A stretch of 64,000 nucleotides of DNA from a virus (lineage: Duplodnaviria > Heunggongvirae > Uroviricota > Caudoviricetes): positions 1-64,000 of the IMG/VR virus record IMGVR_UViG_3300035241_000016. One strand, given 5' to 3'. Position numbers and translations under genes: made by a program. Under the pieces are notes generated by a model that saw only the letters and a program-made list of their open reading frames with translations, made no database searches and was not told where the DNA came from. Of the stretch, positions 1,441-54,929 are shown in pieces. The first letter of the stretch is position 1. Each line of letters begins with the position of its first letter.

Positions 1441-1489
1441 GCCTTGCGGCGATGTCTCACTTCCGCTCTGACGGGGACTGACGCAATCT

Positions 1490-1520
1490 ATTGACATTGT
1501 ATGTAGATTCTGGTAAACTG
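1490..1520 (+). promoter_or_regulatory. near-consensus sigma70-type promoter (TTGACA-N17-TAAACT) upstream of hicA; a second TTGACA follows
   Basis: Seen directly: ttgacattgtatgtagattctggtaaact, then GGGGATAGG SD 9 nt before the hicA ATG. Locally AT-rich in a high-GC genome. Confidence 0.5.
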
Positions 1521-1548
1521 TTGACACAGTACGGGGATAGGTGCCAGA

Positions 1549-2463: not shown

Positions 2464-2630
2464 GATGGGAACCGCTGGGGCGCGAACTGGGCGATGTCCG
2501 CGGCCGTGGTGCTGTACCGATCCCGCGCGTCTGCCATGACAGTAGCAGCATAGCGGCATCCAGGCTGTCCATCGGTGCAGGCAATCCGCACTGGCTTATA
2601 GAACACGCGAGCTAGGACTAATAGGCAGTA

Positions 2631-2672
2631 TTGACAACGCACCAACCAGGGTGTACGCTGTCTGCAGACAGC
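2631..2672 (+). promoter_or_regulatory. promoter-like TTGACA-N17-TACGCT overlapped by the perfect 14-bp palindrome CTGTCTGCAGACAG (operator candidate)
   Basis: Seen in sequence upstream of the Zn-ribbon operon starting 2742 (AGGAG SD before its ATG). Confidence 0.4.
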
Positions 2673-2741
2673 GGAAGAGGCCACCAGGCGGCAACCCGAT
2701 GACCTCCACTTCACCCGCTGCCACTGTTAGGAGCAGTGACA

Positions 2742-2975
2742 ATGAACAAGGCTATCAGCCTCGCACCCGGCACACGCTGCCACAGCGGCGTAACCGGCCT
2801 CCCACTCGATCACGACGCTACGGGCTGGCTGTGCGCCCCCAATGGCTCGCGAGGTCCCGCTATGTGCCAGGAACATGCCTACGAAGTCATCCACGAATAC
2901 GCCGAGAAGTTGGGCGAGCAATGGACCTGGCAATCCGCCGGCGGCACCCACTATGCACCGATGGCCCGCTCATGA
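2742..2975 (+). CDS. small Cys-containing protein (first gene of coupled operon)
   Basis: ATG preceded by AGGAG. MNKAISLAPGTRCHSGVTGL...; inside listed ORF 2736..2975. Confidence 0.5.
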   Translation: MNKAISLAPGTRCHSGVTGLPLDHDATGWLCAPNGSRGPAMCQEHAYEVIHEYAEKLGEQWTWQSAGGTHYAPMARS

Positions 2976-3572: not shown

Positions 3573-3820
3573 CCCTCCCCGCCGCCGAAGCCCGTGCACG
3601 CCGCAGGGCCAAAGGACTGTGTACAGAAGATGCTGTGGCGGTCAATCTGGCCCTAGGTCGCATCTTCGGCATGATGCATCGGCCCCACAAGCCAGGCGAT
3701 GATATCGAATATGAGCGCTGCCGTGCGATCGTCCTCGACTCATTGGACGGCCGCTATGTAGTCCGCGACGATAGGCCAAATTACGCAACCTCTTACGGCA
3801 AGGGCGCGGCGGGTGCCTGA
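3569..3820 (+). CDS. hypothetical protein (GTG start, GTGA overlap)
   Basis: GTG overlapping upstream TGA; VTLPAAEARARRRAKGLCTEDAVAVNLALGRIFGMMHRPHKPGDDIEYERCRAIVL... Confidence 0.4.
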   Translation: MTLPAAEARARRRAKGLCTEDAVAVNLALGRIFGMMHRPHKPGDDIEYERCRAIVLDSLDGRYVVRDDRPNYATSYGKGAAGA

Positions 3821-4026
3821 TGAACCGTACCGCCAAGGTCCGCCGCCGCTACCGTGCGGAGGGCCGGTGTACCTACTGCCCGGCCCCTGCAGTCCAGGGC
3901 CGCGCTTTGTGCGAGCACCACGCGGCTATCAACCGGCAGAAGGCCCGAGAACGGCGCCAGGCACAGAAGCGCCCCGCGGATAGACGTCAGGCGACAGCCG
4001 AGCGCGCCGGCGGTTCTGAGACCTAG
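3820..4026 (+). CDS. small Zn-binding basic protein
   Basis: ATGA overlap; MNRTAKVRRRYRAEGRCTYCPAP...CEHH. Confidence 0.5.
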   Translation: MNRTAKVRRRYRAEGRCTYCPAPAVQGRALCEHHAAINRQKARERRQAQKRPADRRQATAERAGGSET

Positions 4027-4492: not shown

Positions 4493-5002
4493 TCACAGAA
4501 GTGCTCCGCCTGGAGGCGCCACAGCGACATTCATCACCGCTCCCCCCTCCTGCGTGGCTCGCCTAGCCAGCGCGGCACCCTTCGCGATCACCGCGGTTCT
4601 ACCGTGTTGTAGGCACCCCAAGGCCAACGTGGCAACCGCTGCAGGTCCGCCACGGTGGATGGTGTCGGCTACGTCGCGGAGCGCGGCCTCTTCGGTGGCG
4701 TACTCTCCAATGACATTGCCCGTTTGCAGCTCCATTAGTTCATAGGGGCTCGCCCCGCCGACGGCGAGCGGCAGGCCTGGGACGACATCCTCAAGTGGCA
4801 CCTGCCCAGGCATTCGCACAGCCTTTGACCACGGCATGAATGTCACGAGCAAAGCGACATCGTGGGCACGGGCTATCTCCATCAACTGCCTAACGTCATG
4901 GTCCTCTGCCGGGTCAAGGCCAACCATCGCCAACGTCCGAGCAATGTCCGCATCGTTTATTTCACGACGCTTCGTACTCCAGAGCGGGTCATTCGACCTC
5001 AT
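4493..5002 (-). CDS. hypothetical protein
   Basis: 169 aa, overlaps the start region of the upstream gene; moderately protein-like. Confidence 0.35.
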   Translation of the reverse strand: MRSNDPLWSTKRREINDADIARTLAMVGLDPAEDHDVRQLMEIARAHDVALLVTFMPWSKAVRMPGQVPLEDVVPGLPLAVGGASPYELMELQTGNVIGEYATEEAALRDVADTIHRGGPAAVATLALGCLQHGRTAVIAKGAALARRATQEGGAVMNVAVAPPGGALL

Positions 5003-5787: not shown

Positions 5788-5988
5788 TCATGCTGGTCGT
5801 CTCCAACGTTCGACCTCTCGGCCGTTGATCGTCCGGGTGGTGGTGATGTAGGCCCACGGCTCCTTCCCACACCGATAGCAGCGGAACTTCGCAGCATAGG
5901 CCGGGAGCTTGGTCGGAACCTCGCGCCAGGCATGGCCGAATTCGCGGCAACGCCTACCCTTCGGGAACCGCAGCCTCCGAAGCCTCAT
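5788..5988 (-). CDS. small zinc-ribbon protein
   Basis: CREFGH...CYRCG; ATGA overlap with the terL stop. Confidence 0.45.
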   Translation of the reverse strand: MRLRRLRFPKGRRCREFGHAWREVPTKLPAYAAKFRCYRCGKEPWAYITTTRTINGREVERWRRPA

Positions 5989-7313
5989 CGCCCGTATCCA
6001 TAGCTAGTGGTGGTCGCTGCCTGCGGGCGCAGCTTATGCCCGCCCATCAAGCCGTAGCGCAGGGCATCGACGGCGTGGTCTTCGCCTTCCGTGTTCAGGT
6101 CCTCCACACGGTGTAGGTCGTGGACCTGCGCCGGCAAGGTGCGGATCAGGTTCACGCACGTGTCGAACACCTGCAGCACCGGTTCCTCTGACAGCGCCTG
6201 ATGCACCCGCTGCCAGCCGGCGAGGCGGTCGTTGTTCGCCGGCACCAGGTACACTCCGCCGGCCTGGTAGGCCTGCGCGATTGACGTGCCATTCGGCTGC
6301 GTGTTCCACATCGAGGGGTCGCCATACGAGACGGCGATACGCTCGTTGCCCGACAGTCCCTGAATGGTCATGGCCTGCTCGGTGTCGCGCAGGCCGGTCT
6401 CGTACAGCTCACGGTACACGAACACCTGCCCCTCGGGCGATCGCGCCAGCCACAGGCAGCACATCGGGGCGAAGTGCCCGAAGTCCACTGCCCGCCAGCG
6501 CAGCCACTCCCGCGGGATGGCGAACGGCCGGCACACGTGGATATCGCGGCGCCACTCTGGAAAGTACTGCCCGGCGAAGACGTCCCAGTCGCCGTCCAGC
6601 ATGGCCCGGCGCTCATGATCGGGCAGCATCTGCAGGCGCGCGCGATAGCCGGGGTCGGCCGCCTCGCCGGCCGGGTTGTCGTCGATCTTGGCGAAATGGA
6701 AGCAGCGGTCGACCGGCACGCCGGCTCCATTGGTGATACCCTTGCCGCGGTCATCCAAGACCGTCCAGGGTTCGCAATCGAAGGTGCCGTGGTTGACGAA
6801 CCGTTGACGCACCCAGGCGTGCCCGATGCCACCCGGGTTGAAGGTGGAGCGGGTGTAGGGCTCCAGCTCGGCCACGCCGCTGCGGTTCTGCATCAGCAGG
6901 TAGGTGTACTGGCTCTCGCTGAACTCCTCGAGCTGGTCGAAACCCATGAACTGGTACTCGTGGCCCTGGTAGGCGAACTTGGATTCCTCGTGCTGGCAGT
7001 GCCGCAGCAGCAGCCGGCCGCCGCTGGGGAAGGTCCACACGTGCTCGTCGCCCTTCCAGGTGGCGCCCAGGCCCGGCAGCCACTGCCAGGCGCGATCGAG
7101 CAGCTCCGAGAGGCGTGGGAAGTCGCGCCGGAAGATGACCCCCCGGTAGCGCGGATGATGGCTGTAGCGCGTTGCCTCCATCAGGAGGCCCAGGCTCTTG
7201 CCGCCGAACTTGGCCCCGCCAAAGCCGCTCTCGTAGGCGGGACATTGGTGCCAGGCCTCCTGCTTGGGCTGCGGCCGGTACACCAGCTGCGGCTTCTCGG
7301 CGACGGCGGCCAT
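5985..7313 (-). CDS. terL: terminase large subunit
   Basis: Walker A GGAKFGGKS, DGDWD, C-terminal nuclease motif EDHAVDALRY; Terminase_6-like. Start placed at MAAVAEKPQLVY (TAATG overlap) rather than the listed 7412. Confidence 0.85.
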   Translation of the reverse strand: MAAVAEKPQLVYRPQPKQEAWHQCPAYESGFGGAKFGGKSLGLLMEATRYSHHPRYRGVIFRRDFPRLSELLDRAWQWLPGLGATWKGDEHVWTFPSGGRLLLRHCQHEESKFAYQGHEYQFMGFDQLEEFSESQYTYLLMQNRSGVAELEPYTRSTFNPGGIGHAWVRQRFVNHGTFDCEPWTVLDDRGKGITNGAGVPVDRCFHFAKIDDNPAGEAADPGYRARLQMLPDHERRAMLDGDWDVFAGQYFPEWRRDIHVCRPFAIPREWLRWRAVDFGHFAPMCCLWLARSPEGQVFVYRELYETGLRDTEQAMTIQGLSGNERIAVSYGDPSMWNTQPNGTSIAQAYQAGGVYLVPANNDRLAGWQRVHQALSEEPVLQVFDTCVNLIRTLPAQVHDLHRVEDLNTEGEDHAVDALRYGLMGGHKLRPQAATTTSYGYGR

Positions 7314-7654
7314 TAGGCTTTGGTGCCACCATCGCGGAGCTCGATGAGTTCGTTCACTTGGGGTTCCTCCGCCGTACCATCGGACGGCTCCGCCGGGCGC
7401 TCCAATAGACACAGGGCAACGGCATTGGGGGCGTAGCGTCGGATGGCCTGCTCACACCGCTCGGCTGACGCGAGTAGCATGTGGAATGCTCGCGTGGTCT
7501 CGTGGTCGTTCACCGTGCGGACCATGTCTAGGTCACGGATCAGTGACACCAATCCACAGGCCGCGTGCAGAACGTTCTCCCGCCGCACGTTCTGTATGGC
7601 GCGAAGCTCGTCGTGGTTGACCACTACCTGAAGCGCCGGCCCCTCAGTGGCCAT
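7313..7654 (-). CDS. hypothetical protein directly upstream of terL
   Basis: 113 aa, coupled to terL (TAATG). No recognisable TerS motifs. Confidence 0.4.
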   Translation of the reverse strand: MATEGPALQVVVNHDELRAIQNVRRENVLHAACGLVSLIRDLDMVRTVNDHETTRAFHMLLASAERCEQAIRRYAPNAVALCLLERPAEPSDGTAEEPQVNELIELRDGGTKA

Positions 7655-12283: not shown

Positions 12284-12585
12284 TCCTTCTCCTTGGCGGC
12301 TGCCTCGCGCTTAGCCGCAATCCGCAGCCGAGGGCCCAGGATGTCGCGCCTGTACTGGCGCTGGTTGTACAGGTAGAACTGCACCGTCGTGCTGATGAGG
12401 GCGGCCAACTCCAGCGCCTCGCACGGTGCCATGTCGAAGCTGTGCGCGTGTTCTCCTCCCTCAATCGGCGTGAACTCCAACCGCAGCACATCGCAGGCAT
12501 GCTCCTCGCCGACAGGCAGGATGTGCGCTCGCATCTGCCCTTCACCAACCGTGAAGGAGTCCGCTCGCGGGGGTAGGCGCTTCAC
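12280..12585 (-). CDS. hypothetical protein
   Basis: 101 aa, GTGA overlaps at both ends. Confidence 0.4.
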   Translation of the reverse strand: MKRLPPRADSFTVGEGQMRAHILPVGEEHACDVLRLEFTPIEGGEHAHSFDMAPCEALELAALISTTVQFYLYNQRQYRRDILGPRLRIAAKREAAAKEKE

Positions 12586-14132
12586 GCTGCCTCCGCTTTC
12601 TCTCGTTCGGTCCGGCGTTTCTGCGAGGCTCGGTCGGCCTCGCGTTTCGACACCAGCTCAGGACGGAGGTCGGCCGCCTGCACGAAGTGAGGGCAAGGCC
12701 GCGGGCTCCTCGGGAGCACCGGAACACGACCGTTCACCAGGCTCGTCACCGAGATGGCACCTGACCAGCAACCCACCTGGCACCTCACCAGCCGGTCGTC
12801 ACGGCCGCGACCGTCGGCGCGCTTTTGGGGAATGTCCACCGCGTTGGCACACGTCGCGCACTGTCCGTTCGTGTAGCGCTTCGGCGCCAGTGCCACGTGA
12901 AGTGGTGCCGTGAGCGCTACGACCGATGCTTCGTCATCACCGCCCTGGTCCCTCAGATGCGCTTTCCAGTGCTGCTGCATTGGCGCGAAGCCCTCGGCCC
13001 GACAGAAGTCGTCGAACCAAGCGACGAAGTCAGCGAGTGGTACGGAAGCCCGCCACAGTCGATGGCTGGCCTCGGCCGCTCCTGCGGTGGCCGGCTCCAA
13101 GAGCAGGCGCTTGCTGGAATCCGCGAACAGCCGCTCAAGCCGCAGGTGCTCAGCCCATCCAGCTTTGGTCGGCTTGTCGGCGTGGGTGAACCACGCCCGG
13201 AAGTCTGCGTACGGCGTGTCGGCGTTGGCCCATGCCTGGTAGGCAGACTCGGGCCCGACCATCAGATCCTCCAGCGGCCTCCGGTCGCGCAGGGCGCTGG
13301 AGGGTTTGCGCCCGGAGATAAGGTCGTCCAGTTTGCGCCGGGCCTCCTCGATGGTCCGGCCAAAGACGATCTTGGGCCCGGCATCCGTGGTGAGCCGGCC
13401 CCGCCAGCGGCCGCGGGTCCTGTCCCAGACGATGGTGCCGGCAGGGTTCCGGGGACGTCCGCGAGCAATAGGTGAGGCGGACTTGTTCGGCGCCGCCGGT
13501 CGGAAGCACTCGCGACAGCGACCCCGTACGCCAGCGCCGCCATCCCGGGCGATCTGGAAGGCAGCGATGGGCAGCACGCGATCGCACCCGCGGCAGCGCT
13601 TCGTGCCCGGCTCGAGCACCACGACGCCAAGCCGCGCCCGCAGCGCCGCGAGCTTCTCCAGGCAGCGCTCGCGGTCCGTCGACGCCACCCAGAACTGTCG
13701 CCCCTGGTGCGTGACGTGCCCGCGCCAGCCGCCGTGCACGCGGTCGTACGACAGCCCCTTGAGCTTGGGCGGGTTGGTGCGCAGGCACTCGGCGCACTCT
13801 CGGCGCTCAGGGTCCACGTCCGTCGCCGGAAGCAGGCGCTTACAGCGTCGGCAGTAGGCGAGGCTGCTGTTATCCTCGGAAGCAAGTGGGCTCGGATTGT
13901 TCCGGGTCGGCGGGGAGGCTCCGGCGGGTGCCTGGGGTGCCTCTTCCTTCGTGGAATGTCGGTCCGGTGCGTGCCCCGGAGCCTCCAGCTTCTCGGGCGG
14001 TTCCGTTTGTGGGCCATCCCACTCCGCTATGGTCGACGTACCGTCGCGGCTGAGGCGACCAAAGGATGCCCTCGTTACCGTCACCTCGACAGAAGTGGTG
14101 CGCCCCGTCCCGCTGCGACCCGCGGTACTCAC
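12582..14132 (-). CDS. AP2-like/zinc-ribbon DNA-binding protein with long Pro/Glu-rich N-terminal tail
   Basis: GTG start in GTGA overlap. Zn ribbon AYCRRCKRLL...ECAEC; two AP2-like units (GLSYDRVHGGWRGHVTHQGRQFWVASTDRERCLEKLAAL and GTIVWDRTRGRWRGRLTTDAGPKIVFGRTIEEARRKLDDL); C-terminal Cys domain shared with 11645..12283. Confidence 0.5.
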   Translation of the reverse strand: MSTAGRSGTGRTTSVEVTVTRASFGRLSRDGTSTIAEWDGPQTEPPEKLEAPGHAPDRHSTKEEAPQAPAGASPPTRNNPSPLASEDNSSLAYCRRCKRLLPATDVDPERRECAECLRTNPPKLKGLSYDRVHGGWRGHVTHQGRQFWVASTDRERCLEKLAALRARLGVVVLEPGTKRCRGCDRVLPIAAFQIARDGGAGVRGRCRECFRPAAPNKSASPIARGRPRNPAGTIVWDRTRGRWRGRLTTDAGPKIVFGRTIEEARRKLDDLISGRKPSSALRDRRPLEDLMVGPESAYQAWANADTPYADFRAWFTHADKPTKAGWAEHLRLERLFADSSKRLLLEPATAGAAEASHRLWRASVPLADFVAWFDDFCRAEGFAPMQQHWKAHLRDQGGDDEASVVALTAPLHVALAPKRYTNGQCATCANAVDIPQKRADGRGRDDRLVRCQVGCWSGAISVTSLVNGRVPVLPRSPRPCPHFVQAADLRPELVSKREADRASQKRRTEREKAEAA

Positions 14133-14665
14133 GCCGCCAACATCTCCGCCGTGATGGCTTCGCCGCGTTCCCAGCGATTGGCGAAGTCCGCCCAACCAGC
14201 CTCGAGCGTCCAAGAAGCATCACGCTGCAGGCGCGTGAGTAGGTCCGCCAACGTACTCGGCACCATCGCGACCTCGTCCCAGCACCAGTTGCCCACCCAG
14301 GTCGAGTAGCCTTTGATGGCGAAGGCACCGCAGCGGTCGAACACCACCCGGAAGTCCTGCCGGTCGATGTGGCCAGGTACGCCGTCGGGCTCGTCATCGC
14401 TATCGCTTACGGGTCCGTGCAATTCCAAACACGGCTCCAGGTGTTCGCTGGCCGTGTAGACCTTCAGCGCTCGGATCCAGCCGTCGGGGAAGCCGTTGCG
14501 CGGGTTATTGCTCGCCAGGGCCAGGCACGGGTAGGGGTAGGGAGAGGCACTCACGTGGACGAGTGAGGTTCTCAAGAGTTTGGTACGGCCACCACCATTC
14601 GGCGCAGTGGCCTTCGCTGGATTTGCGACGCGACCCGGAGTCACCGTTCGGCTCCCTCCAGGCAC
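14129..14665 (-). CDS. hypothetical protein abutting the tRNA 3' end (true start probably internal)
   Basis: C-terminal 120 aa is protein-like (...DRQDFRVVFDRCGAFAIKGYSTWVGNWCWDEVAMVPSTLADLLTRL...). Listed start lies 7 nt from the tRNA, so is unlikely. Confidence 0.35.
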   Translation of the reverse strand: MPGGSRTVTPGRVANPAKATAPNGGGRTKLLRTSLVHVSASPYPYPCLALASNNPRNGFPDGWIRALKVYTASEHLEPCLELHGPVSDSDDEPDGVPGHIDRQDFRVVFDRCGAFAIKGYSTWVGNWCWDEVAMVPSTLADLLTRLQRDASWTLEAGWADFANRWERGEAITAEMLAA

Positions 14666-17174: not shown

Positions 17175-17389
17175 GTGTTCCGCACGTTGGCGGACCGCAG
17201 CAGCAGACCGTCCAAGTACTCGAGCTCGTCGTACATAGCAGCCAACTGCCAGGCGTTAATTTCGCCGTCCTCAAACCAGTGAATAATCGTGTTTATTCGC
17301 CGGTTGCTTCGGCCCTCAAGAGACTCGTCCTCTGGCAAGTCCTCCCAGGCAACATGGCCGAGCGGCACTAAACGCTTGTCCTTAGCCAT
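17171..17389 (-). CDS. hypothetical small acidic protein
   Basis: 72 aa; GGAGTAAGG SD; protein-like composition. Confidence 0.5.
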   Translation of the reverse strand: MAKDKRLVPLGHVAWEDLPEDESLEGRSNRRINTIIHWFEDGEINAWQLAAMYDELEYLDGLLLRSANVRNT

Positions 17390-18134
17390 GCGCCTTACTC
17401 CGTTCTCGCGCAGTTAAGCGGAGGGATGGCAGGCTCAGGACCCCAAAGGCATCCGCTCCCATCCAGTCGCGAGCAAAGCCTTCGACCCGTGCCCCATTCA
17501 GCATCGTGCTGTTGCGATGGTGGTAATGACCATGCACGATGAGCTTTGGACTGACGGCATCAACCACTCGACGGACCTGGCGCCGGTTGCCTAGCGACTC
17601 AGGCCACCTATCTTTGTCGCCTGCCGTTGACGGCCCAACGACGCCGGCGGCGCCATCCGGTGCGTCATGACACACCAGCACATCGGTAGGGCCGCCTTCG
17701 CTGGCCTTCCTAACCTCGTCGTCAGTGATGGTTTCCTCGGACCACCACGACTGGCCTTCGACGCGGTTCGGCTTGTCAACGCTGTAGGCCCCGCCGAGAG
17801 CAAGAAATCGCACGCCGTCACAGGCCCACCGATAACCGCGGGGGAGATACGTCACACGCGGCCGAATTTCGACCGCTCGGCTGCAGTCGTACCGCGTTCG
17901 CAGCAACGCGTGATTCTCGTGATTGCCGTCTACCCAAAAGAGGAAGAGGCCGTACCGCTCCATCAATTCGCTAGCGGCCTTCAGGTAGTAACACCCATCG
18001 TCAAGGTGCTCCCAGTAGCCAAAGTCACCAAGCTGGAGAATGGCCGTGCATTTCTGCTCGTCAGCGACCTGGGCAAGGAACCGGAGCCAGTCCGCTTGGC
18101 CGTGCGTGTCGCCGGCCAGAAGCACTTTCGTCAT
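17382..18134 (-). CDS. Ser/Thr protein phosphatase (calcineurin-like metallophosphoesterase)
   Basis: Motifs LLAGDTHGQ, GDFGYW, VDGNHENH, GHYHH. Start placed at MTKVLLAGD. Confidence 0.75.
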   Translation of the reverse strand: MTKVLLAGDTHGQADWLRFLAQVADEQKCTAILQLGDFGYWEHLDDGCYYLKAASELMERYGLFLFWVDGNHENHALLRTRYDCSRAVEIRPRVTYLPRGYRWACDGVRFLALGGAYSVDKPNRVEGQSWWSEETITDDEVRKASEGGPTDVLVCHDAPDGAAGVVGPSTAGDKDRWPESLGNRRQVRRVVDAVSPKLIVHGHYHHRNSTMLNGARVEGFARDWMGADAFGVLSLPSLRLTARERSKAHG

Positions 18135-18159
18135 GACGCTGACCCTTCGCTCAGTTCCA

Positions 18160-19938
18160 TTAGCGGCTCGCGCTTTCTCGTGGAATGCCGGCCGGGAATA
18201 GGAGCTCCGTTGCCGCAACCGCGCCACGCACGGGGTAGTCAATCAGGCCGAGGCTTCGGAGGCCTCCCAGGTTATTCCCGTAGCCGCTGGACGTCGCCGA
18301 CTGCCCAACCCGCCGCGCGAGGTCATCCCGTGTCATGTGAAGTGGATACGCGTCGACCAACGCCCGGACGATGTTGGCGCGCGGCGCCGGCAACTTGGCG
18401 TACCAGGCATCGTGCAGGGCCTCGAGCGACCGGAAGGCGCCACGCATGGCGGCCACCTGGCGTCCGGCCTCGGTCAGGGCCACCATCCCACCGCGGGGGT
18501 AGTCGACCAGGCCGTTCGTCCGCAGCCGGCCAAGATTGTTCCCGAATCCCGACGATCTCGGCGATTGGTCCGCGAATACGGCGACGTTGCTCCGGGCGAT
18601 CTCCGGCAAGCCCAGAGCTTCGAACTCGGCGAGAGCATCCAGGATGGCTTGCTGGGGTCGGGTTATGTCGCCGGCTGCAATGCTGGCTGGTTGGAGTATC
18701 CTCGGATCCGCGGGTTCTGGCGTCTTTACACCACGCGGTAATCCGTCATGCGCAGCCTGCACAACCGCCGGCGGCGTGTACGAGGGTCGCTGGGCTGAGC
18801 TGAGAGCGGTGGCTACTCGCTCGGCCGCGGTGTTCAGACTGGCGGCAGCCTCCTGGGCTAGCTGCGCCGCTCGCTGCAGGGCTTCGACGTCAGCCGCGCC
18901 GACGATCGGCACCTCAATCCGTTCGACGACGGGCTCCGCCGCTGGCCGGCTCGCTAGTTGGCGCTCAAGCTCGGCAATCCGCTGGCGAAGTTCCTTCGGG
19001 TCGTCCGCCTTCGCCTTGTCGACCACGGACGCCAACTCAGCCGAGAGTGCCGTCAGATCGACGTCGGCTAGCGTTCGCGGCTCAACACGCGTCTCGCCAG
19101 GCTTCGGTGTCGCGGAGCTGTCGAAGGTCTCCCGGCGAGCCACCTGCACGCGCTGAAAGATGCCCTCGTCATCGGGCCAGCCCGGCGACCAGACCCAGGC
19201 CGTACCCACTGGCAGCGATGGCAGCGAATCCATCAACTCGCGGCGCTGCTCCGGCGTGCCATGAACGTCAATCCAATCGTTGAGCGCCGCCAGGTCCTGC
19301 GGCGCGATCGTCCGAAGTGCGATGAGGATCTGGATCTGGGTGAGGACGTTCTTATTAAGAACTGCCGCGCGTTGCGTGGCCATGAGGCAGCCAATTCCAC
19401 GCTGGCCACCGCGGCGGACGATGTCCTCGCAGGCGCCAAGCATCCGCTCCTCACCCTTCTGCGGACGCTGAGGCGCGACAGCATCAGCCTCGTCGATGAT
19501 GAGCATCATCGGCGTGCGGAACTGCTCCTTGGCCTTCAGCCGATACAGCGTCTCCAGGAAGATGGCCATGAACGTGGCCAGCTCGTGCTTGCGAAACATG
19601 GACAGGTCGACCAGCGCCGTCACCCGCTGCTCCACCAGGAACCTGGCCACGGCCTCGCCGGCGTTCACGTCCAGCGGGATGTCGGCGTGTTCACCACCCA
19701 GAATGAGGATTGGTAGGCCAGGCGACTTGCCGTCGGCACTGGAGCGCAGACCATACCAATCGCCTTTGGGATCGACGACAACGACTTGTAGGCCGGCTCC
19801 GAGCATTTGCTCGGTCAGCTTGGCTGCGCAATAGCTCTTACCGGCCCGGCGCTTTGCAAGCACGCCAATGGCCTGCGTCACGGTTTCGAGAGGGAGTTCC
19901 AGCTCGCTGGCAATTCGCAGCACTCTCATCGCTACCAA
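18160..19938 (-). CDS. P-loop NTPase (HerA/FtsK-like; Walker A AKRRAGKS, Walker B LIIDEAD) with two C-terminal wHTH-like repeats
   Basis: 592 aa; VLAKRRAGKSY...VVVVDPKGDWYGL...MMLIIDEADAV. C-terminal repeats SSGFGNNLGRLRTNGLVDYPRGG and SSGYGNNLGGLRSLGLIDYPVRG. Confidence 0.6.
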   Translation of the reverse strand: MVAMRVLRIASELELPLETVTQAIGVLAKRRAGKSYCAAKLTEQMLGAGLQVVVVDPKGDWYGLRSSADGKSPGLPILILGGEHADIPLDVNAGEAVARFLVEQRVTALVDLSMFRKHELATFMAIFLETLYRLKAKEQFRTPMMLIIDEADAVAPQRPQKGEERMLGACEDIVRRGGQRGIGCLMATQRAAVLNKNVLTQIQILIALRTIAPQDLAALNDWIDVHGTPEQRRELMDSLPSLPVGTAWVWSPGWPDDEGIFQRVQVARRETFDSSATPKPGETRVEPRTLADVDLTALSAELASVVDKAKADDPKELRQRIAELERQLASRPAAEPVVERIEVPIVGAADVEALQRAAQLAQEAAASLNTAAERVATALSSAQRPSYTPPAVVQAAHDGLPRGVKTPEPADPRILQPASIAAGDITRPQQAILDALAEFEALGLPEIARSNVAVFADQSPRSSGFGNNLGRLRTNGLVDYPRGGMVALTEAGRQVAAMRGAFRSLEALHDAWYAKLPAPRANIVRALVDAYPLHMTRDDLARRVGQSATSSGYGNNLGGLRSLGLIDYPVRGAVAATELLFPAGIPRESASR

Positions 19939-19976
19939 CTCCCCACCAGTTGCCCATTCGTAGCTAGAATTGGCGC

Positions 19977-20465
19977 ATGCTTCCTCGCGGCGCCGACCTC
20001 TCGGGAAAGCGATTCGGCCGACTGGTAGTCATCGAAGAGGCCCCTCGTCCGAGCCCGCGTCATCGTCTGTGGATATGTCGTTGCGACTGCGGCAACACGG
20101 CCGTCGTTCGACAGGACCACTTGGGGAAGAAGATTCAGGCGTGCGGTTGCCTCCAGCGAGAACGGACATCGGCGGCCAATCGCACACACGGTATGAGCAA
20201 GACTCCCGAGTTCCACACGTGGGAGCGCATCAAGAATCGTTGCCACAATCCGCGCACGCCGGACCATCCCGACTGGGGCGGGCGGGGAATCTTCGTCTGC
20301 GAAGAATGGCGCCATGACTTCACGGCCTTTTATCGCGACATGGGGCCACGCCCAAGCCCGCAGCACTCCATCGACCGCATCGACAACGACGGTCCATACT
20401 CGCCTGAGAATTGCCGATGGGCCACGGCGAAGGAACAAGCCAACAACCGACGCCACGCCGCCTAG
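19977..20465 (+). CDS. HNH_3-like (degenerate, IDRID) DNA-binding/homing-endonuclease-like protein, paralog 1 of 3
   Basis: N-terminal Zn motif [12 protein letters not shown]...[13 protein letters not shown]...CGC. C-terminal [12 protein letters not shown]...DMGPRP...[27 protein letters not shown] resembles HNH_3 but with His replaced by Arg. Opposite strand to all neighbours. Confidence 0.6.
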
Positions 20466-20627
20466 ATCCACGATGACCACCTGCTGACCAGCGCCACTAA
20501 GTTGCTCCGTGAACTTGGCTGCGGAGTAGCTCTTGCCGGCGCGGCGTTTCGCGAGGATCCCGATGGCCTGGGTAACCGCCTCCAATGGCAGCACCAGGTC
20601 GGAAGAAATCTGCAGACCGGCTCTCAC
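20457..20627 (-). pseudogene. duplicated 5' fragment (~57 codons) of the P-loop ATPase gene, truncated where the HNH-like gene sits
   Basis: MRAGLQISSDLVLPLEAVTQAIGILAKRRAGKSYSAAKFTEQLSGAGQQVVIVD aligns with residues 5-57 of the 18160..19938 product. Frame collapses into antisense of the HNH gene after VVIVD. Confidence 0.55.
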
Positions 20628-20796
20628 CAGCCACCGCCGGAATGGTCGTCTAGCCGATCAAAGACCCCGCAGTGGCCGAGCGCAGCTGCAACGCCCAGCG
20701 CCAGACCTGGCCACCATGCTGCCGGCGGGCACCCTTTGGCAGGAGCGTGATGTCTTGTACGTCTTCCTTTAGGATGCATGATGCACAACATACTGC

Positions 20797-22434
20797 CTAC
20801 GCTTCCCTCCGCCAAATGATAGGACCGGCCGCGGCCTGCTGCTCCAGCCGGAGGCGCTCGCCTGGCGTGCGGATTTCGAACTCCCAGCGCAGGCTGCGGC
20901 CATCAGTGACGATGTGGTCGACCAGCGTGCGTACCACTTCGCGCCGCTGTTCGAAGGTGGCGGAGGCGGCCCGATCGCGGATGATGCCCACCACGCTGGC
21001 AGCGCTGGCGATCTGCAGTTCCGAGAGGCGGCGGTGGCCCAACTTCTCCACCAACTCGGCGCGGCGGGCCAGCCAGCGGTCTTCCTCCAACTGGACCTTC
21101 CGGAACTCGGCCTCGGTGACGGCCAGGGTGTACAGCTCCGGCAGCTTGCGCCGGCCGTCCAGAACGACGTCGCGCTCTCGCGCGAGGCGCGGCAGGGCGC
21201 GCGTGTCGATCTCCTCGAGCTCGCGCTCGAGCCCCTCGTAGTAGGCAGCGCCCTTCTCCCGCAGCCGTGAGAGCTCGGCCAGCACCAGCTCGGGCTGCTC
21301 GAGCAGCTCCCGCACCTTTGCCCACACCGGCTCGTCCAGCCGGTAGCTGGCCACGCTCGTACTGGTGCACCTGGGCCCCGGGTGATAGACGCTGCGTAGC
21401 TTGCCGTTACAGCGGTAGAAGGTGTAGGTCACGCCCTTCTTCTTCCCGTCGCGGCTGGCGCCGTGCACAGCACGGCCGCAGACCGAGCAGCGGAGAATGC
21501 CGCTCAGCAGGAACTCGTGCTTGCTGTTGCGCGCCGCGAAGCGCTTGTTGTCGGCGATGCGACGCTGGACTTCGTCCCACAGCTCATCAGTGATGAGTCG
21601 CGGGCAGCCGAGCCGGATCCAATCCTCCTGCGGCCGCAGGCGCTCAGTCTTGCGTGGCTTGCCTCCGACCTTCTTCCGATAGCCCGGCTCGGCGGCGCGG
21701 TAGCGGCGCTGCACCAACTCGCCCTTCAGGGCTGGATTGCGGAGCATGCGGGCGAGCGTGGCCGTGCGCCACTTTCCGCCCCTGGTAGTGGCCACGCCGC
21801 TGTCGATCAGCCAGTAGACGATGGACTGCAAACTGTGGCCAGCGAGCACGCGCTCGACGATGCTGCGCATGGTGGCGGCCTCGGTCTCGCGCAGAACGTA
21901 CTTGCGCTCCTGCTTGTCGTAGGCCATCCAGAAGAACTCGCCTGGGTTGACGATGCGTCCGGCCCGGGCATGCTCGAGGCGGCCGCGGGCGGTGCGCTCG
22001 GCGATCTGCATGCGCTCCACCTGAGCCAACACACCCTGCAGGGCATCGAAGGCAAATCCCATCGGCGTGTCGGTGTTGGCGAAGGGCTGCCCGTTGGGGC
22101 CGGCCAGCACGACGCCGGCGGCGCGCAGTTCCTTGTCGAGGAAGAGCTTGTCGGCCAGGTCCCGGCTGATGCGATCAGGATCGACGCAGCGCACCTGGTC
22201 CACGCCGCGGGCGCGGACCAGCTCACGCAGCCGGGACAGGGCTGGCCGCTCGAGCAGCGCACCGGACCAGCCGGGATCCTCGAACACGGGGGCGTCCATG
22301 TCCTCATCGCGGACCAGCTCGTCGTCAGGGCCCAGGCCGGCCAGAAGGATGGCGCGCTGCACCTCGACGGTCTGGCCGTCCGTGGAAACCCGAGCATAGA
22401 GCGCCACCCGCATGCCGTTAGTCCGGCTCACCAT
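20797..22434 (-). CDS. large serine recombinase (integrase)
   Basis: MRVALYARVSTDGQ catalytic N-terminus, recombinase domain, Cys-containing zinc-ribbon region and long coiled-coil C-terminus; 545 aa. Confidence 0.85.
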   Translation of the reverse strand: MVSRTNGMRVALYARVSTDGQTVEVQRAILLAGLGPDDELVRDEDMDAPVFEDPGWSGALLERPALSRLRELVRARGVDQVRCVDPDRISRDLADKLFLDKELRAAGVVLAGPNGQPFANTDTPMGFAFDALQGVLAQVERMQIAERTARGRLEHARAGRIVNPGEFFWMAYDKQERKYVLRETEAATMRSIVERVLAGHSLQSIVYWLIDSGVATTRGGKWRTATLARMLRNPALKGELVQRRYRAAEPGYRKKVGGKPRKTERLRPQEDWIRLGCPRLITDELWDEVQRRIADNKRFAARNSKHEFLLSGILRCSVCGRAVHGASRDGKKKGVTYTFYRCNGKLRSVYHPGPRCTSTSVASYRLDEPVWAKVRELLEQPELVLAELSRLREKGAAYYEGLERELEEIDTRALPRLARERDVVLDGRRKLPELYTLAVTEAEFRKVQLEEDRWLARRAELVEKLGHRRLSELQIASAASVVGIIRDRAASATFEQRREVVRTLVDHIVTDGRSLRWEFEIRTPGERLRLEQQAAAGPIIWRREA

Positions 22435-29392: not shown

Positions 29393-30592
29393 TCATGCCT
29401 CAGACTCCAAGCCCAGCAGCAGGTGCTGCACAGATCCGTTCTCCATCACCTGCGGCAGCAGGACATCGCCGCGGACTTCCGTGCCGTCCCACCCGTTCGG
29501 CCAGGTGTTGGCATCTATCAGCTCGAGGATCCGGGCGTGCTCGGCTGGGTCGATCAGGGTTACCTGCGGCCGTTCGGCAGCCGCCGCACTGATCTCGTCC
29601 TGGATGGCCAGCACGGTCGCGAGGCCAGCCCGCCGGGCGTCCATCGTAAGGGGGCCCATACGCATCGGGTTCAGTGGGATTGAGCCATCCTTGAGGCGCT
29701 GATCGCCTGCCTTGCGCAGCCGGCTATGCGCCTTGGTCAGCTCGGCGTACAGCGGTCGGAGGCGTCGCAGTGGCTCCAGGTAGCGCCAGTGCTCCAGGCC
29801 GAGCAGCATCTCCAGCGCGGTGTCGCGGCTCGCCAGATTGCAGCCCACGCAACCCGTGCGGGCGTTGATTTCCTCGGCCTCATCACCGCCGTAGGCCTCG
29901 GCCACCATCTGCGTCGGGAAGCCCATCCCGGGCGCTTCGAACATCAGCCAGTCCCACACGTGGCAGACGCGCCAATGCAGCAGCGGCGCCAACGTGTCGG
30001 CCACGGCGGTTGGCGTCGCCTCCTGAAACCAGCCCTGGCCGCACTCAGCGCCATCGCGGCTACAGGAAACGGCGATCCGCTGGTCGCGCGCGGCGCTCTC
30101 GCCCAGCCGGACGCCGGTCAGCGCCAACAGCTTCTGGCCGACCTGGTCGCGCAGTCCCTGGAGCGCCGCCATCATCGGCTCGATCTTCAGTTGCGGCGTG
30201 CACCACCGGAAATGGTTCTTGGGCGGGGGCACGCCCCGGCCGAACATGTAGACGAAGAAGCGCTCATCGAGCGGTGGCTTGACGACCTCGGCCCGGTAGC
30301 CGCGCTGGCGCAGCTCGTCAAGGACCCGGAGCGCGGCCACGTTCAGCGGGGGCAACTCCATGCCTGTGTCGGCGTACATGATGGACAGCGACGCAGGCCG
30401 TGGCACAGCGCCCGTTTCGATGAGGTGGATCACGACAGTCACCGTGGCGGTTGAGTCCTTGCCGCCCGAGTAGGCGATAGACCAATGCGGATAGCGCTCG
30501 CCGTAAGCCCGCAGGGACTCGGCCGTCAGTTCGACGCTCTCCTGCATCGTCAGGCGCTCAGCTTCGAACAGGCTCACTCGGCGCACTGTCAT
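29393..30592 (-). CDS. PAPS reductase-family PP-loop ATP pyrophosphatase (DndC/SspD-like)
   Basis: PP-loop WSIAYSGGKDSTATVTVV; 399 aa; C-terminal Cys pair GCVGCN. Confidence 0.7.
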   Translation of the reverse strand: MTVRRVSLFEAERLTMQESVELTAESLRAYGERYPHWSIAYSGGKDSTATVTVVIHLIETGAVPRPASLSIMYADTGMELPPLNVAALRVLDELRQRGYRAEVVKPPLDERFFVYMFGRGVPPPKNHFRWCTPQLKIEPMMAALQGLRDQVGQKLLALTGVRLGESAARDQRIAVSCSRDGAECGQGWFQEATPTAVADTLAPLLHWRVCHVWDWLMFEAPGMGFPTQMVAEAYGGDEAEEINARTGCVGCNLASRDTALEMLLGLEHWRYLEPLRRLRPLYAELTKAHSRLRKAGDQRLKDGSIPLNPMRMGPLTMDARRAGLATVLAIQDEISAAAAERPQVTLIDPAEHARILELIDANTWPNGWDGTEVRGDVLLPQVMENGSVQHLLLGLESEA

Positions 30593-35860: not shown

Positions 35861-36384
35861 GCTCCCACTCCTGCAGCCCGGTACACCTCACGCGGCGTGT
35901 CATAGCCGAGCCGACTTGGATGCCGAGGGCTGCCCGACCCTGTTCGACCCAGGCACCAAAGCTCGATCCCACTGAGCAGCCGAAGCACATCCCGCGGTCG
36001 CCAGTCCCCGGGGCCGGAGTCGCCCCAGGCGACGAGCACGGCCGCGGCGCTCTGCGCCTCAACCCGCAGCCAGTGATCGTTGTCGGGCCCGATCGGATCC
36101 ACGACGGCACGCAGGGCCTTGGGGTCCGTCGACCTCCAGGCAAAGATGTTCGTGACGACAACGCCGTCGTAGCCCCACAGCCGAGCCCATTTCTGCAGCT
36201 TGTGGACGGTCGGGTCGTCGCTCGTCTCGTCAGCGGTGCTGGGATTGAGCGCGATGACATTGAGGCGCCGCGGGTTCGTCTCGTCAGTGAAGTCACGGAA
36301 CAGGCTGTACCGCCACCGGCGGCAGCTGGAGAACAGCGCCCAGCACCGGACGCCATCCGGGCGGACTGTGACGGTAGGGGTCAC
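35857..36384 (-). CDS. DUF1643 domain protein
   Basis: RLNVIALNPSTADETSDDPT...GYDGVVVTNIFAWRSTDPKAL...VAWG matches DUF1643; GTGA overlap with the C5-MTase. Confidence 0.6.
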   Translation of the reverse strand: MTPTVTVRPDGVRCWALFSSCRRWRYSLFRDFTDETNPRRLNVIALNPSTADETSDDPTVHKLQKWARLWGYDGVVVTNIFAWRSTDPKALRAVVDPIGPDNDHWLRVEAQSAAAVLVAWGDSGPGDWRPRDVLRLLSGIELWCLGRTGSGSPRHPSRLGYDTPREVYRAAGVGA

Positions 36385-38153
36385 GCGACGGCCTCGGTCG
36401 ATTCGTCGGTTAGCACTGGTAGGTCGTCGAGCATCGCCTCGAAGAGTGCCCGGGCTGTTTCCAGAGGGACGCTGTTCCCGATCTGCTTGGTGATGTCGGC
36501 CTGCGTGCCCACGAACTTGTAGTCGGGTGGGAAACTGTGGGCGCCGGCCAGTTCAGGTAGGGGCTTGAGCATGCGGTAGCCGATGTCCCCAACGACCACC
36601 ACGAACGTGATCCCGTCGGTGGTCACGAAGCCGAGCCGTCGCGGATCGACGTCTAGGCCTTCGGTCCAGGTTCGGAGCTCGGCGGTAGCGACGGCAATGT
36701 TGTTGCGGATCGTCAGGGTAGGCAGCGGGTCGGCGCTGGAACGGTTGACTCCGTCGTCCTCGCGGCTCGTGTTGGCGACCGTGATGAGCAACGGAGTAAC
36801 CAGGTTGTGATGGCATTCCGTCGTGACAGTTGGCATTGGGTCGTCGATTCCGTGAGTCCGCGGGTGTTGACCTTCACGCTCCTGCAGACGCGGCGTGATA
36901 AACGGCGTGGCGACTGCTAGGCGGTCTTTGGTCATGACGGTCGGCAACGGCTCTTTCGCTGACCGGGCCTCGGCGGTTGGGCCGTAGGGCACGACCTGAG
37001 GAGTAGCGATGGCATGGTGAATGCCGCCGGCGCTGATGGCCCCGATCGGCTCCGTCAGCGGCTTGGCCGTCGACCGTATCTGATAGCCTTTTGTCCCGCG
37101 CAGCGTCACCAGGACGGGGCTGGCAAGTCCGAAGCGGTCACGGACGAAGATGAACGGCTCGAGCGCTTCGGCGCCGTCCTCGGCAACGATGACGAACGGC
37201 TCGCCTGGCTTCCAATCTGTTCCGCACTCCGCGATGTAGCGGTTTTTGGCGGCCTGTGGAATGTCCAGCATGTTGATGTACCAAGGGCCATAGTTCCCCC
37301 AGTACAGTCGCGCGCCGCGGGCAACACGCATCTGGGTGTTGACCGACAGCCGAACCGTGCCATCGGCTTTGTAGATGCTCGGTCCGCGATCGTTCAGATC
37401 CAGCACTTCGGCGGCTGCCCGATAGGGCTTGAGATTCCCGAACATGGTCCGCCGGCCGGCATTCCTCGGGGCATGGGTGGCCATCGGCCAGCGCAGCGGA
37501 CGTCCATCCTTGCGAGCGATGAGGAAAAACCGTCGACGGGTGGTCGGGTCGCCGTAATCCGCGCACGTCAGGACCTTCCAATCGACGTCATAGCCACAGT
37601 CGATGAGGCTCTGACGCCACGCCTGAAAGAAGACGCCTTTACGAGTGGGGTCCGGTCGCTCACCGTCCATCTTCGCGCACTTGGCGATGGACTGGTTATG
37701 GCGCTGGCAATGAGTGTCATGGCCGCGAGTCGGGACGCAGTCTTTGGCGTACAGCATCGGGCCCCAGTCGACGAACTCGGGAACGTTTTCGACGATGAAC
37801 CGGTCAACGTCTAGGTCGGTCAGCCAGCGGTTGATGAGCCAGGGGCTGACACGGAGTTGGTCGGACATGGGCTTCCGGCCGCGGGCTCTGCTGTGGTAGG
37901 TGCACTCGGGACTTGCCCACCCGATGTCGACGTGGCCTCCCCGAATCAACTCGATCGGCTTGACGTCCTCGAGATTGCGGCAGAGGCCCGGGCCGATGTT
38001 CCGCTCGTAGGTCGCGATGGCTACTTTCCAGTGATTCACAGCCGTGATGTGAATGTCATAGCCACGGGCTCGAAGCGCCTGGCGCATGGCTTCGCTTACA
38101 ACGCCCGTCCCGCAGAACAGGTCGAAGCCTTCCAGGGTCTTCGTCGAGCTCAA
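36381..38153 (-). CDS. DNA cytosine-5 methyltransferase (atypical P-E-C catalytic motif)
   Basis: Motif I FCGTGV, motif IV ASPECTY (PEC instead of PCQ), motif VI ENVPEF, motif X GNSVP; 590 aa. Confidence 0.7.
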   Translation of the reverse strand: MSSTKTLEGFDLFCGTGVVSEAMRQALRARGYDIHITAVNHWKVAIATYERNIGPGLCRNLEDVKPIELIRGGHVDIGWASPECTYHSRARGRKPMSDQLRVSPWLINRWLTDLDVDRFIVENVPEFVDWGPMLYAKDCVPTRGHDTHCQRHNQSIAKCAKMDGERPDPTRKGVFFQAWRQSLIDCGYDVDWKVLTCADYGDPTTRRRFFLIARKDGRPLRWPMATHAPRNAGRRTMFGNLKPYRAAAEVLDLNDRGPSIYKADGTVRLSVNTQMRVARGARLYWGNYGPWYINMLDIPQAAKNRYIAECGTDWKPGEPFVIVAEDGAEALEPFIFVRDRFGLASPVLVTLRGTKGYQIRSTAKPLTEPIGAISAGGIHHAIATPQVVPYGPTAEARSAKEPLPTVMTKDRLAVATPFITPRLQEREGQHPRTHGIDDPMPTVTTECHHNLVTPLLITVANTSREDDGVNRSSADPLPTLTIRNNIAVATAELRTWTEGLDVDPRRLGFVTTDGITFVVVVGDIGYRMLKPLPELAGAHSFPPDYKFVGTQADITKQIGNSVPLETARALFEAMLDDLPVLTDESTEAVA

Positions 38154-43559: not shown

Positions 43560-44011
43560 GCTGCATGCCTCTTGAGCCAGTTCTTGCGCTGGCCAAATGG
43601 AATCAATGGGGTAGTGAGCGCTCGCTCGACAGGCCAGCCATTGTTTAGACGGAACTGGAGCGAGCGCTTCGTGAGCCCCTTTTCCCGGGCCCACACGATG
43701 AGCGGCTTTGTCTCGCCACCGAACGTAATCAATCGGTTCGAGCGCAGATTCTGCTGCTGCTGCCGAGCTGTCGCCCAACGGCAGTTGATGCGGTCGATGC
43801 TGTACCCGGGCCCAGGTCGAGGCCCCATGTCCGTCAGGAACGCCTCGAAGGAGTCGCGCCAGCGATCGCATACGGTGATGCCCCTACCGCCATACCTGGA
43901 GTAGCTCCGATCGCTAGGGTTCTGACACCGCCGTTTGAGGGAATCCCATGTGCGGTATTCGGAGAGGTAGGTGGCCTTGATGCCGATCGGTGTTGTCCGT
44001 GGCTGCCTCAC
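43556..44011 (-). CDS. HNH_3-like (degenerate) protein, paralog 2 of 3, with C-terminal HTH extension
   Basis: [15 protein letters not shown]...DMGPRPGPGYSIDRIN; lacks the N-terminal Zn finger, has a C-terminal LIVWAREKGLTKRSLQFRLNNGWPVERAL HTH. Confidence 0.55.
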   Translation of the reverse strand: MRQPRTTPIGIKATYLSEYRTWDSLKRRCQNPSDRSYSRYGGRGITVCDRWRDSFEAFLTDMGPRPGPGYSIDRINCRWATARQQQQNLRSNRLITFGGETKPLIVWAREKGLTKRSLQFRLNNGWPVERALTTPLIPFGQRKNWLKRHAA

Positions 44012-54527: not shown

Positions 54528-54908
54528 CTACGGCTTCAGGGTCGCCTCGGGCCTTGGTGAGGAGCCGGACCAGGCCGGGATCGGCAGGCCGAGCACACGC
54601 AACTGGTCCGCGATCTTGCCCAGCAGTGCAGCGATTACCAGCGCCGACACGGCCGTCTCGAGCGCCATCGCGGCTTCACGGTAATCCACCAGCGCGGTCA
54701 GTGCGAGCATCTTGACGGCCGCCCAGCCAATCACGTACGGCATGATCCGGGTCAACAGGAAGTCGCCGACCGCCCCCAGATAGAACTGGTACTGCTTCGA
54801 GAAGAGGGCGCAGGCGATCCCGAGCAGCACGTTCGCGGCGATCAGCCCCATGATGCCTCGGACCCAGGGTGTATTGAAGATGGCTAGCGCCAGGCTGTAA
54901 GCGTCCAT
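54528..54908 (-). CDS. membrane protein with 3 predicted TM helices (holin-like)
   Basis: Start MDAYSLA with AAGGAGA SD; [53 protein letters not shown]. Confidence 0.5.
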
Positions 54909-54929
54909 TGCGAGTCTCCTTACCTTGGT

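Follow-up and report, generated by a model that had tools for sequence, protein, structure and literature searches.

A spare ATPase gene start beside an antisense HNH-like gene in a tailed phage genome points to a probable homing-type invasion and a hybrid gene

The window analysed here is the whole 64,000-nucleotide (nt) stretch of a virus of the Caudoviricetes (IMG/VR record IMGVR_UViG_3300035241_000016, positions 1 to 64,000), in which nearly all genes from ~2 kb to ~59 kb lie on the minus strand. Within this run, a gene for an HNH-like protein is placed on the opposite strand, head-to-head with the gene for a HerA/FtsK-like P-loop ATPase, and a second, diverged copy of the start of the ATPase gene, referred to here as the stub, lies at its other end. 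Along the minus strand, the gene for a large serine recombinase (integrase) is followed by a 54-codon piece beginning with GTG at 20627, the reverse complement of 19977..20465, a 47-nt spacer and an intact gene of 589 codons. An earlier sequence-only reading of this stretch had described the ATPase gene as split by the HNH-like gene, whereas the gene is whole and occupies 18160..19929 on the minus strand.

The ATPase of 589 amino acids (aa) matches the Pfam models DUF87 and HerA_C above their cut-offs. Its N-terminal half forms the ATPase, with a HerA-like core and a Walker A P-loop whose GKS motif (residues 30-32) is invariant, and its C-terminal part consists of two winged-helix-like repeats. 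Its scores against the NCBIfam HerA equivalog models fall far below the cut-off, and we therefore place it in the superfamily and do not regard it as a HerA orthologue; it is also distinct from the terminase, which maps elsewhere (large subunit, 5985..7412). More than 3,000 database homologues align to it from residue 1-4 to about residue 580. The gene had been read as 592 aa (18160..19938) with a TTG start at 19938. While its intactness stands, the ATG at 19929 is the more likely start because the resulting 589-aa form matches a database protein, P0001, exactly, with 100% identity. Only one distant homologue, MW202482 (46%), was found in the phage GenBank collection, and a whole-locus tblastx comparison of L003 (loci outside the window are designated by L and a number) with the window gave compositional noise only and no usable synteny. 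Downstream, the open reading frame (ORF) of a metallophosphoesterase (17382..18242), with its mechanically assigned start, overlaps the 3' end of the ATPase gene by 83 nt (18160..18242), and its true start probably lies further downstream. At the other end, the spacer between the ATPase ATG and the HNH ATG (19930..19976) has the same length in L090, the only similar locus among viral contigs, and measures 36-51 nt in the other loci described below.

The stub (20466..20627, minus strand) comprises a GTG start at 20627 and 53 codons of another ATPase allele. Alignment at both the nucleotide and the protein level bears out the earlier claim that it duplicates the start of the ATPase gene, the duplicated segment being codons 1-53 of the resident, intact gene (19771..19929, minus strand). 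The homology is gapless over 50 codons, with stub residues 5-54 facing resident residues 4-53 and 38/50 residues identical (76%; BLASTP E = 5e-27), which is far above chance; the stub has no further match within the window. The duplicate had been given as 57 codons, but three of the quoted codons are non-homologous and the homology amounts to 50 aligned codons. Likewise, the nucleotide identity of 75-80% that had been quoted is not upheld: it is 68.7% (103/150 aligned bases), and only the best 75-nt core reaches 78.7%. What was said of the boundary is exact, as the homology ends with GTG GAT directly before CTA, the complement of the HNH stop codon TAG (20463..20465), in the same codon phase as the HNH-like gene.

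The differences between the stub and the resident copy are concentrated at third codon positions, with 41/50, 44/50 and 18/50 identical bases at the first, second and third positions, respectively. By the Nei-Gojobori method, the proportion of synonymous differences (pS) is 0.76, which is saturated, and that of nonsynonymous differences (pN) is 0.154 (Fisher p = 1.6e-11). Since the synonymous sites are saturated, the stub and the resident start must have diverged for long as working genes, that is, as two old alleles. The stub is as near to distant family members (39/50 for P0086, 38/50 for P0004) as to the resident copy (38/50), and its mean closeness to the family consensus (62%) exceeds that of the resident N-terminus (59%). 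The stub is the little-decayed remnant of a different ATPase allele and not a local duplication, and the term 'diverged duplicate' used earlier is to be corrected accordingly.

The HNH-like gene (19977..20465, plus strand) encodes a protein of 162 aa in three parts, which from N- to C-terminus are a Cys-rich ribbon (CxCxC...CGC), a helical middle region and a beta-beta-alpha motif. Its sole library match is PHROG 374, 'HNH endonuclease' (E = 2e-66); NCBIfam gave no match, nor did the PDB, searched by phmmer with the single sequence and with a profile. In the AlphaFold model, which is confident (predicted local distance difference test score, pLDDT, 93), the N-terminus forms a beta ribbon that holds four invariant Cys, the middle is helical and the C-terminus folds into a beta-beta-alpha unit, so that the predicted structure has the fold of the HNH superfamily. 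The family is large, with 7,989 database matches at an E value of 1e-10 or lower. Arg134 (SIDRID) stands in place of the general-base His in 51/51 diverse members and in all nine ATPase-associated copies, and D133, Y141, N145, C146, W148 and N157 are also invariant among the 51 aligned members. N145 and N157 sit where the motif, rather than an alignment to a solved active site, predicts a conserved Asn and a metal-binding Asn/His. The gene had been called a degenerate HNH gene, with the catalytic His replaced by Arg. The change is real, and because Arg is invariant across 51 diverse family members it is a stable family trait, not decay of these copies. The HNH restriction endonuclease PacI (PDB 3m7k) also has no canonical His, and a Tyr probably serves instead; by analogy, nuclease activity of the Arg-bearing family is plausible. 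Matches to the HNH-like protein in the phage GenBank collection are short and lie in actinophages, and a scan of the genome collection with the HNH pair returned no close relatives and hence neither a host assignment nor a prophage example. We also considered whether the C-terminal tail of the HNH-like protein might be the antisense of further ATPase sequence, and this was ruled out, as no similarity was seen on inspection.

A profile scan of viral contigs recovered 80 ATPase loci, and viral contigs and related sets together 87. An HNH-like gene at the ATPase start was present in L090 alone among the 80, where it is 65% identical to that of the window, antisense and 47 nt from the ATG. Consequently, the gene is sporadic, being found beside the ATPase start in 1/87 loci, and an extra upstream piece of ATPase N-terminus accompanies it in the one locus that has it (1/1) and none of those that do not (0/86). 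The sequence-only reading had proposed that related phages be checked for an uninterrupted allele; none close to the window was found, but L090 has such a relative in L238. The ATPase body of L238 (protein P0005) is ~90% identical to that of L090, and the locus has no HNH gene. Over 91 nt, the L090 stub and the adjoining end of the upstream gene match the native start of the L238 gene at 96.7% identity. The intact L090 gene, in contrast, begins with a co-converted tract of ~190 nt that shares only 63-80% identity with L238, and identity rises to 88-97% downstream of it. Because the stub matches L238 and the first ~190 nt of the intact gene do not, the sequences show that in L090 the native start has been displaced and that a foreign start of ~63 codons arrived with the HNH gene. 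By analogy with L090 and L238, the segment 19771..19929 of the window would be the copy that came with the HNH cassette. Moreover, L090 and L172 have ATPase bodies that are 86-92% identical, HNH cassettes that are only 57-76% identical and different stubs, and such near-identical bodies with different cassettes point to separate acquisitions.

These comparisons also suggest where the invading element would act. The foreign tract of L090 ends just past the DPKGDQ(H)G codons, the longest stub, that of the window, ends just before the same motif (VVD|PKGD), and all stubs are of at most 53 codons. The break may therefore be placed in this motif, the most conserved stretch. At the Trp position after DPKGD (window 19752..19766, residues 55-59, KGDWY), 102/113 homologues have Trp; among the resident genes, those of the window and L173 have Tyr and those of L090 and L172 have His, and these four are HNH-bearing alleles. 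The replacement of Trp, seen in these few and related loci, may reflect an immunity change at the presumed cleavage site.

The arrangement recurs well beyond L090. A metagenome scan with two HNH proteins as seeds returned five closer relatives (63-74% identical), all five of which are head-to-head with a HerA-like ATPase gene, and P0121, the nearest relative in the database (80%), is arranged in this way on 16 contigs. Altogether, the HNH relatives of 63-80% identity in L225-L228, L169, L171, L170, L172, L090 and L173 are all placed head-to-head with a HerA-like ATPase gene, whose start is 36-51 nt away, although the resident ATPases at these loci are only 27-68% identical to that of the window and two belong to another subfamily. 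The stubs differ in length, with 13 codons in L225, 18 in L171, 20 in L090, 25 in L169, ~33 in L231, ~42 in L173 and 53 in the window; the stub of L172 is doubtful. Six of these seven abut the HNH stop codon and that of L231 ends 9 nt short of it, and all seven recognisable stubs are in the codon phase of the HNH gene, for which the chance expectation is ~(1/3)^6. L169 and L171 combine a stub of the common ATPase type with a resident gene of the other subfamily. HNH relatives of no more than 52% identity are not found beside ATPases. In L231 (4716..5549, in ATPase orientation, reverse complement), what comes after the 33-aa stub and the HNH gene is an unrelated gene of 65 aa in place of an ATPase gene, with an ATGA overlap kept, and a stub-HNH pair can therefore persist, or move, without an ATPase.

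Similar scars occur at genes of other kinds. An HNH-like gene lies between diverged duplicates of the first codons of a glycosyltransferase-like gene in L064 (868..945 and 1444..1521; 56% nt identity) and of a 580-aa structural-looking gene in L043 (3829..3900 and 4605..4676). The duplicates comprise the first 24-26 codons of the unrelated downstream gene and are 69-71% identical in aa, and the HNH genes are co-oriented with their neighbours. Since L064 and L043 carry such duplicates at non-ATPase genes, leaving a 5' duplicate appears, from these sequences, to be a habit of the HNH-like family. In L066, two 67-aa stretches (2542..2742 and 3781..3981; 48% identical) with intein/Hint-like starts of the form 'C[IL]A.GTLVVTD' flank an HNH-like gene; this pair may be a Hint-domain target or tandem Hint genes.

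Given the recurrence of the arrangement, the comparison of L090 with L238 and the restriction of stubs to the HNH-bearing locus (1/1 versus 0/86), the proposal of the sequence-only reading, homing-type invasion with co-conversion or recombination between two alleles, is supported, and its two parts are compatible with each other. We consider it probable that a free-standing, homing-endonuclease-type HNH-like cassette invaded the 5' end of the ATPase gene through double-strand-break repair. First, the nuclease of an HNH-bearing phage would cut an HNH-free ATPase allele at the VVD-PKGDWWG codons (~53-62). The downstream end of the break would then recombine homologously with the donor ATPase gene, so that the donor 5' end, the spacer and the HNH gene are copied; the resulting co-conversion tract is seen in L090/L238 and would apply to the window by extension. 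Finally, the upstream end, resected to a variable extent, would be joined without homology at the end of the HNH gene, leaving the recipient start and its first 13-53 codons as the stub. The outcome would be an intact hybrid ATPase gene, and the invasion would therefore be cheap for the phage. The two repeats (69% nt identity) would be too diverged to recombine the cassette out again. As the scar recurs in unrelated phages, it apparently marks a repeatable and harmless way into essential genes for elements of this kind.

Several observations weigh against this scenario or limit it. The HNH-like protein matches no Pfam HNH model even at E up to 10, it carries the invariant Arg at the general-base position, and both its nuclease activity and its cleavage site are predictions for the family as a whole. 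L170 has no recognisable stub, and L229 and L231, with HNH genes 64-66% identical to that of the window, are not followed by an ATPase gene. Stub lengths vary and yet most stubs abut the HNH stop exactly, which the model explains only partly. The window phage has no close HNH-free relative, the nearest ATPase being 62-68% identical. A nativeness test, in which the identity of the stub and of the resident N-terminus was compared with that of the body across 113 homologues, gave no signal; even the two halves of the body were uncorrelated (rho ~0), the family is star-like at such a depth and the test is without power. The resident N-terminus of the window has the motif 'AGLQVVVVD' in common with the nearest full-length homologues, and for this reason the co-conversion tract of the window may encompass the entire gene, or the piece that came in may be the stub.

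The alternative that fares best is an ordinary mosaic junction, in which illegitimate recombination took place within the ATPase gene and the HNH gene came along as a passive passenger (a moron) without homing. Phage genomes are mosaic, the catalytic His of the HNH-like protein is Arg, and stub and resident copies that represent old alleles are expected from any recombination of diverged phages. However, the same HNH clade occupies the same position, 36-51 nt from the ATPase start, in at least eight further loci, most of them with a stub. The confinement of stubs to the HNH-bearing locus, the 5' duplications at unrelated genes with related HNH-like genes, and the different cassettes on the near-identical ATPase bodies of L090 and L172 likewise speak against a passive passenger, and we regard this explanation as unlikely.

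It is less likely still that the HNH-like protein and the ATPase form a functional module that is kept adjacent by co-function and not by selfish mobility. The head-to-head pairing is retained across very diverged ATPases, the terminase genes follow a few kb downstream of the ATPase gene in the window and in L007, and HNH proteins assist the terminases of HK97-like phages. Cooperation between HNH proteins and terminases is mentioned in section 4.2 of PMC11855218. Against such a module, the HNH gene is present at only ~1% of ATPase loci and is antisense in an operon with its genes on one strand, insertion events have left their mark in stubs and a co-conversion tract, and L231 retains stub and HNH gene without the ATPase, while the family occurs in many other contexts.

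Direct repeats around an inserted gene resemble target-site duplications, and a local tandem or target-site duplication at insertion, followed by divergence of the copies in place, would account for them. The saturated synonymous sites at 76% protein identity would then demand long purifying selection on the stub; moreover, the stubs of L169 and L171 come from a different subfamily than the resident gene, and the L090 stub is 96.7% identical to the native end of its relative when the resident 5' end is only 63-80% identical. These observations make a local duplication very improbable.

The strand opposite to the HNH-like gene carries a further regularity. In the direction of the ATPase gene, the stub, the in-phase antisense of the HNH gene (0 stops) and the spacer form a composite ORF of 231 codons (19932..20627, minus strand), which ends with TAG (19934..19932) 2 nt before the ATPase ATG (TAG CG ATGA). 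In nine loci (the window, L090, L169, L170, L171, L172, L173, L225 and L231), the antisense frame that shares the codon boundaries of the HNH gene has no stops (9/9), while the other two antisense frames have 2-8 stops each, except that L173 has one further stop-free frame. The composite ORF ends at or overlaps the next start codon in 8/9 loci, as TAG-CG-ATGA in the window, ATGA in L090, L171, L172, L225 and L231, GTGA in L170 and TGATG in L169. By comparison, 3/22 family members that are not adjacent to an ATPase (GC content at least 0.58) lack in-phase antisense stops, and some non-ATPase members without antisense stops likewise end on the downstream start codon. Local codon usage gives each locus a probability of 0.04-0.47 of having no stop, and for six loci these values multiply to ~1e-4. 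Substitutions among the nine HNH genes fall at 0.27, 0.23 and 0.54 for the first, second and third HNH codon positions, so that selection acts on the HNH frame, and at silent sites the loci are almost independent of one another. Among HNH-free relatives, 61/85 ATPase genes have an upstream ORF that ends at their start, 51 of them with a 4-nt overlap, and coupling to an upstream frame is therefore the native state.

Taken from conservation statistics, this pattern suggests that translation was kept running across the insert. With the HNH gene antisense in a long same-strand operon, only joints with an open frame would survive, and ribosomes would initiate at the stub start, cross the HNH gene antisense and terminate at the ATPase start, whereby coupling or protection from polarity is kept. 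Only insertions that keep ribosomes running to the ATPase start would then persist, and what is selected would be the act of translation (coupling or the avoidance of polarity), not its product. We advance tentatively, and a little short of favouring it, the broader proposition that antisense-embedded members of the family are selected for a stop-free opposite strand in phase with the displaced start, so that ribosomes cross and re-initiate at the restored gene. If true, homing elements would have, beside self-splicing introns and inteins, a third means of being 'invisible' in an operon, and the need to translate the antisense strand would constrain the codon choice of a gene; the codon usage of a gene could then be shaped by selection for translation of the opposite strand across an insert, for coupling or to avoid polarity. 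Two observations count against translation across the insert: L173 breaks the stop/start rule, and the window, taken by itself, could well have an open antisense frame by chance (P ~0.34). The long open antisense frame also has a practical consequence, as gene callers mishandle such loci: the version of the HNH gene in the source annotation (P0133) has 90 aa, 56% of the gene, and the gene caller was probably misled at 19977..20465 by this frame.

An open frame in 9/9 loci that is stop/start-coupled to the next gene might also indicate that the 231-codon ORF encodes a functional protein, with an ATPase N-terminus fused to a new domain. The substitutions, however, fall on HNH third positions, stubs of 0-53 codons from varied subfamilies leave no conserved product, and translation alone accounts for the pattern, so that we give this idea very little credence. 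Least credible is a reading in which the stub, 170 nt downstream of the integrase gene, is part of the attachment site of the serine integrase and the phage carries a piece of its target gene; this was rejected, as stubs accompany the HNH gene and not integrases, no integrase adjoins the HNH/ATPase pair in the other stub+HNH loci, phage genes lie on both sides of the integrase and serine integrases do not need 160 nt of homology.

The closest parallels to the hybrid gene come from fungal mitochondria, in which mobile ORFs generate hybrid genes with duplicated gene ends that are 63.5% identical in nt and 91% identical in aa (PMC3630166, with reference to Paquin et al. 1994). Cases include atp6 of Allomyces macrogynus, in the account attributed to Paquin, Laforest and Lang (1994), and atp6, atp9, cox2 and nad3 of Glomus (Beaudet et al. 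2013, PMC3630166), and the displaced native end resembles that of close relatives while the inserted end is foreign (PMC3630166). As in those genes, an endonuclease gene lies between two diverged copies of a gene end in the window and the other loci; in L090/L238, a foreign copy is joined in phase to the gene body and the native copy is displaced; and the duplicates are much closer at the protein level (76% aa here) than at the nucleotide level (68.7%). The mitochondrial cases differ in that they concern the 3' end and a co-oriented LAGLIDADG or GIY-YIG ORF, whereas here the 5' end including the start codon is affected, in phages, by an uncharacterised HNH-like family that is often antisense with a read-through frame. 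What is new is thus a probable endonuclease-borne hybrid gene at the 5' end, in phages and with an antisense HNH-like gene, of a kind already known from mitochondria.

Phage systems supply the remaining elements. The free-standing homing endonucleases of T4-like phages (seg and mob; 'intronless homing'; Edgell, Gibb and Belfort 2010, PMC2988022) resemble the present case in the placement of a nuclease gene by a conserved gene and in their sporadic distribution, and T4 homing also provides co-conversion in the neighbouring gene, as in L090/L238, and an illegitimate joint on the side without homology. One-sided illegitimate repair of double-strand breaks during T4 intron homing is mentioned in PMC2988022, which cites Parker et al. 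(1999), and the end-joining step proposed above would follow this pathway. In contrast, the T4 elements are intergenic, without a duplicated gene start, and their enzyme activity is proven, where here it is predicted. For mobE in nrdA of Aeromonas phage Aeh1, which PMC2988022 describes, citing Friedrich et al. (2007), as producing genes-in-pieces by endonuclease insertion, an endonuclease gene similarly lies within a conserved phage gene whose function is retained; there the gene is split into two polypeptides, whereas here it is whole and the element brings a spare 5' end. The nearest published idea to read-through is the ShiLan insertion (PMC11855218), an HNH element in a phage gene whose insert is stop-free in the direction of the host gene, so that host translation can cross it. 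In ShiLan the HNH gene shares the strand of the host gene in another frame, and the insert forms part of the translated methylase; in the present loci the HNH gene runs on the opposite strand, and the read-through frame ends at the start codon of the complete, restored gene without being fused to the ATPase.

More generally, these findings indicate that an abundant HNH-like family (more than 7,900 relatives, with no Pfam or NCBIfam model) is probably mobile and enters the 5' ends of phage genes. The spare gene starts that it leaves would explain short orphan ORFs in phage annotations that resemble the N-terminus of the next gene, and the conserved VVDPKGDWWG-coding stretch of this ATPase gene, which is widespread in phages, is a candidate site for asking whether an Arg-variant HNH protein cuts DNA.

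The surroundings of the locus are those of a phage-type genome with an integrase in mid-genome. The large serine recombinase (20797..22434, minus strand; Pfam Resolvase, Recombinase and Zn_ribbon_recom) is context only, and because phage genes flank it on both sides the window is not a prophage end. Between its stop and the stub start lies a gap of 170 nt (20628..20796), which contains a mechanical ORF of 63 codons (20624..20815, minus strand) whose TGA overlaps the stub GTG (GTGA). It has no family match and is uncertain as a real gene, but is possibly the native upstream partner in a translational-coupling chain. A scan of 19600..21000 for promoters and terminators yielded nothing above expectation. 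Between the ATPase and terminase genes, a 543-aa protein (12582..14213, minus strand) has weak matches to endonuclease VII and HNH-type models (E ~2e-4 to 9e-4) and is possibly a further nuclease. A primase-like gene is also present, and a PAPS-reductase-like gene (29393..30592, minus strand; PHROG 12882, E = 5e-158) together with a gene for a 590-aa DNA methyltransferase (36381..38153, minus strand) suggest a DNA-modification module carried by the phage.

Two further members of the HNH-like family are encoded in the window, in agreement with the three genes counted earlier; all three had been described as IDRID variants, and the SIDRID motif is found in two of them, while the third has a deletion in the motif (SIDRIN-CRW). 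Comparison of flank with flank at both additional genes revealed no duplications. The third copy (43556..44011, minus strand) is co-oriented with its neighbours and truncated, without the N-terminal Cys ribbon, with a beta-hairpin deletion (SIDRIN-CRWAT) and with an extra C-terminal helix-turn-helix-like tail, and is probably decaying or repurposed. The second copy (54984..55490, plus strand; 47% identical, SIDRID) is antisense between an amidase-like gene (55818..56327, minus strand) and a gene for a small membrane protein (54528..54956, minus strand); it thus lies inside an apparent lysis cassette, where it is crossed by no single read-through frame.

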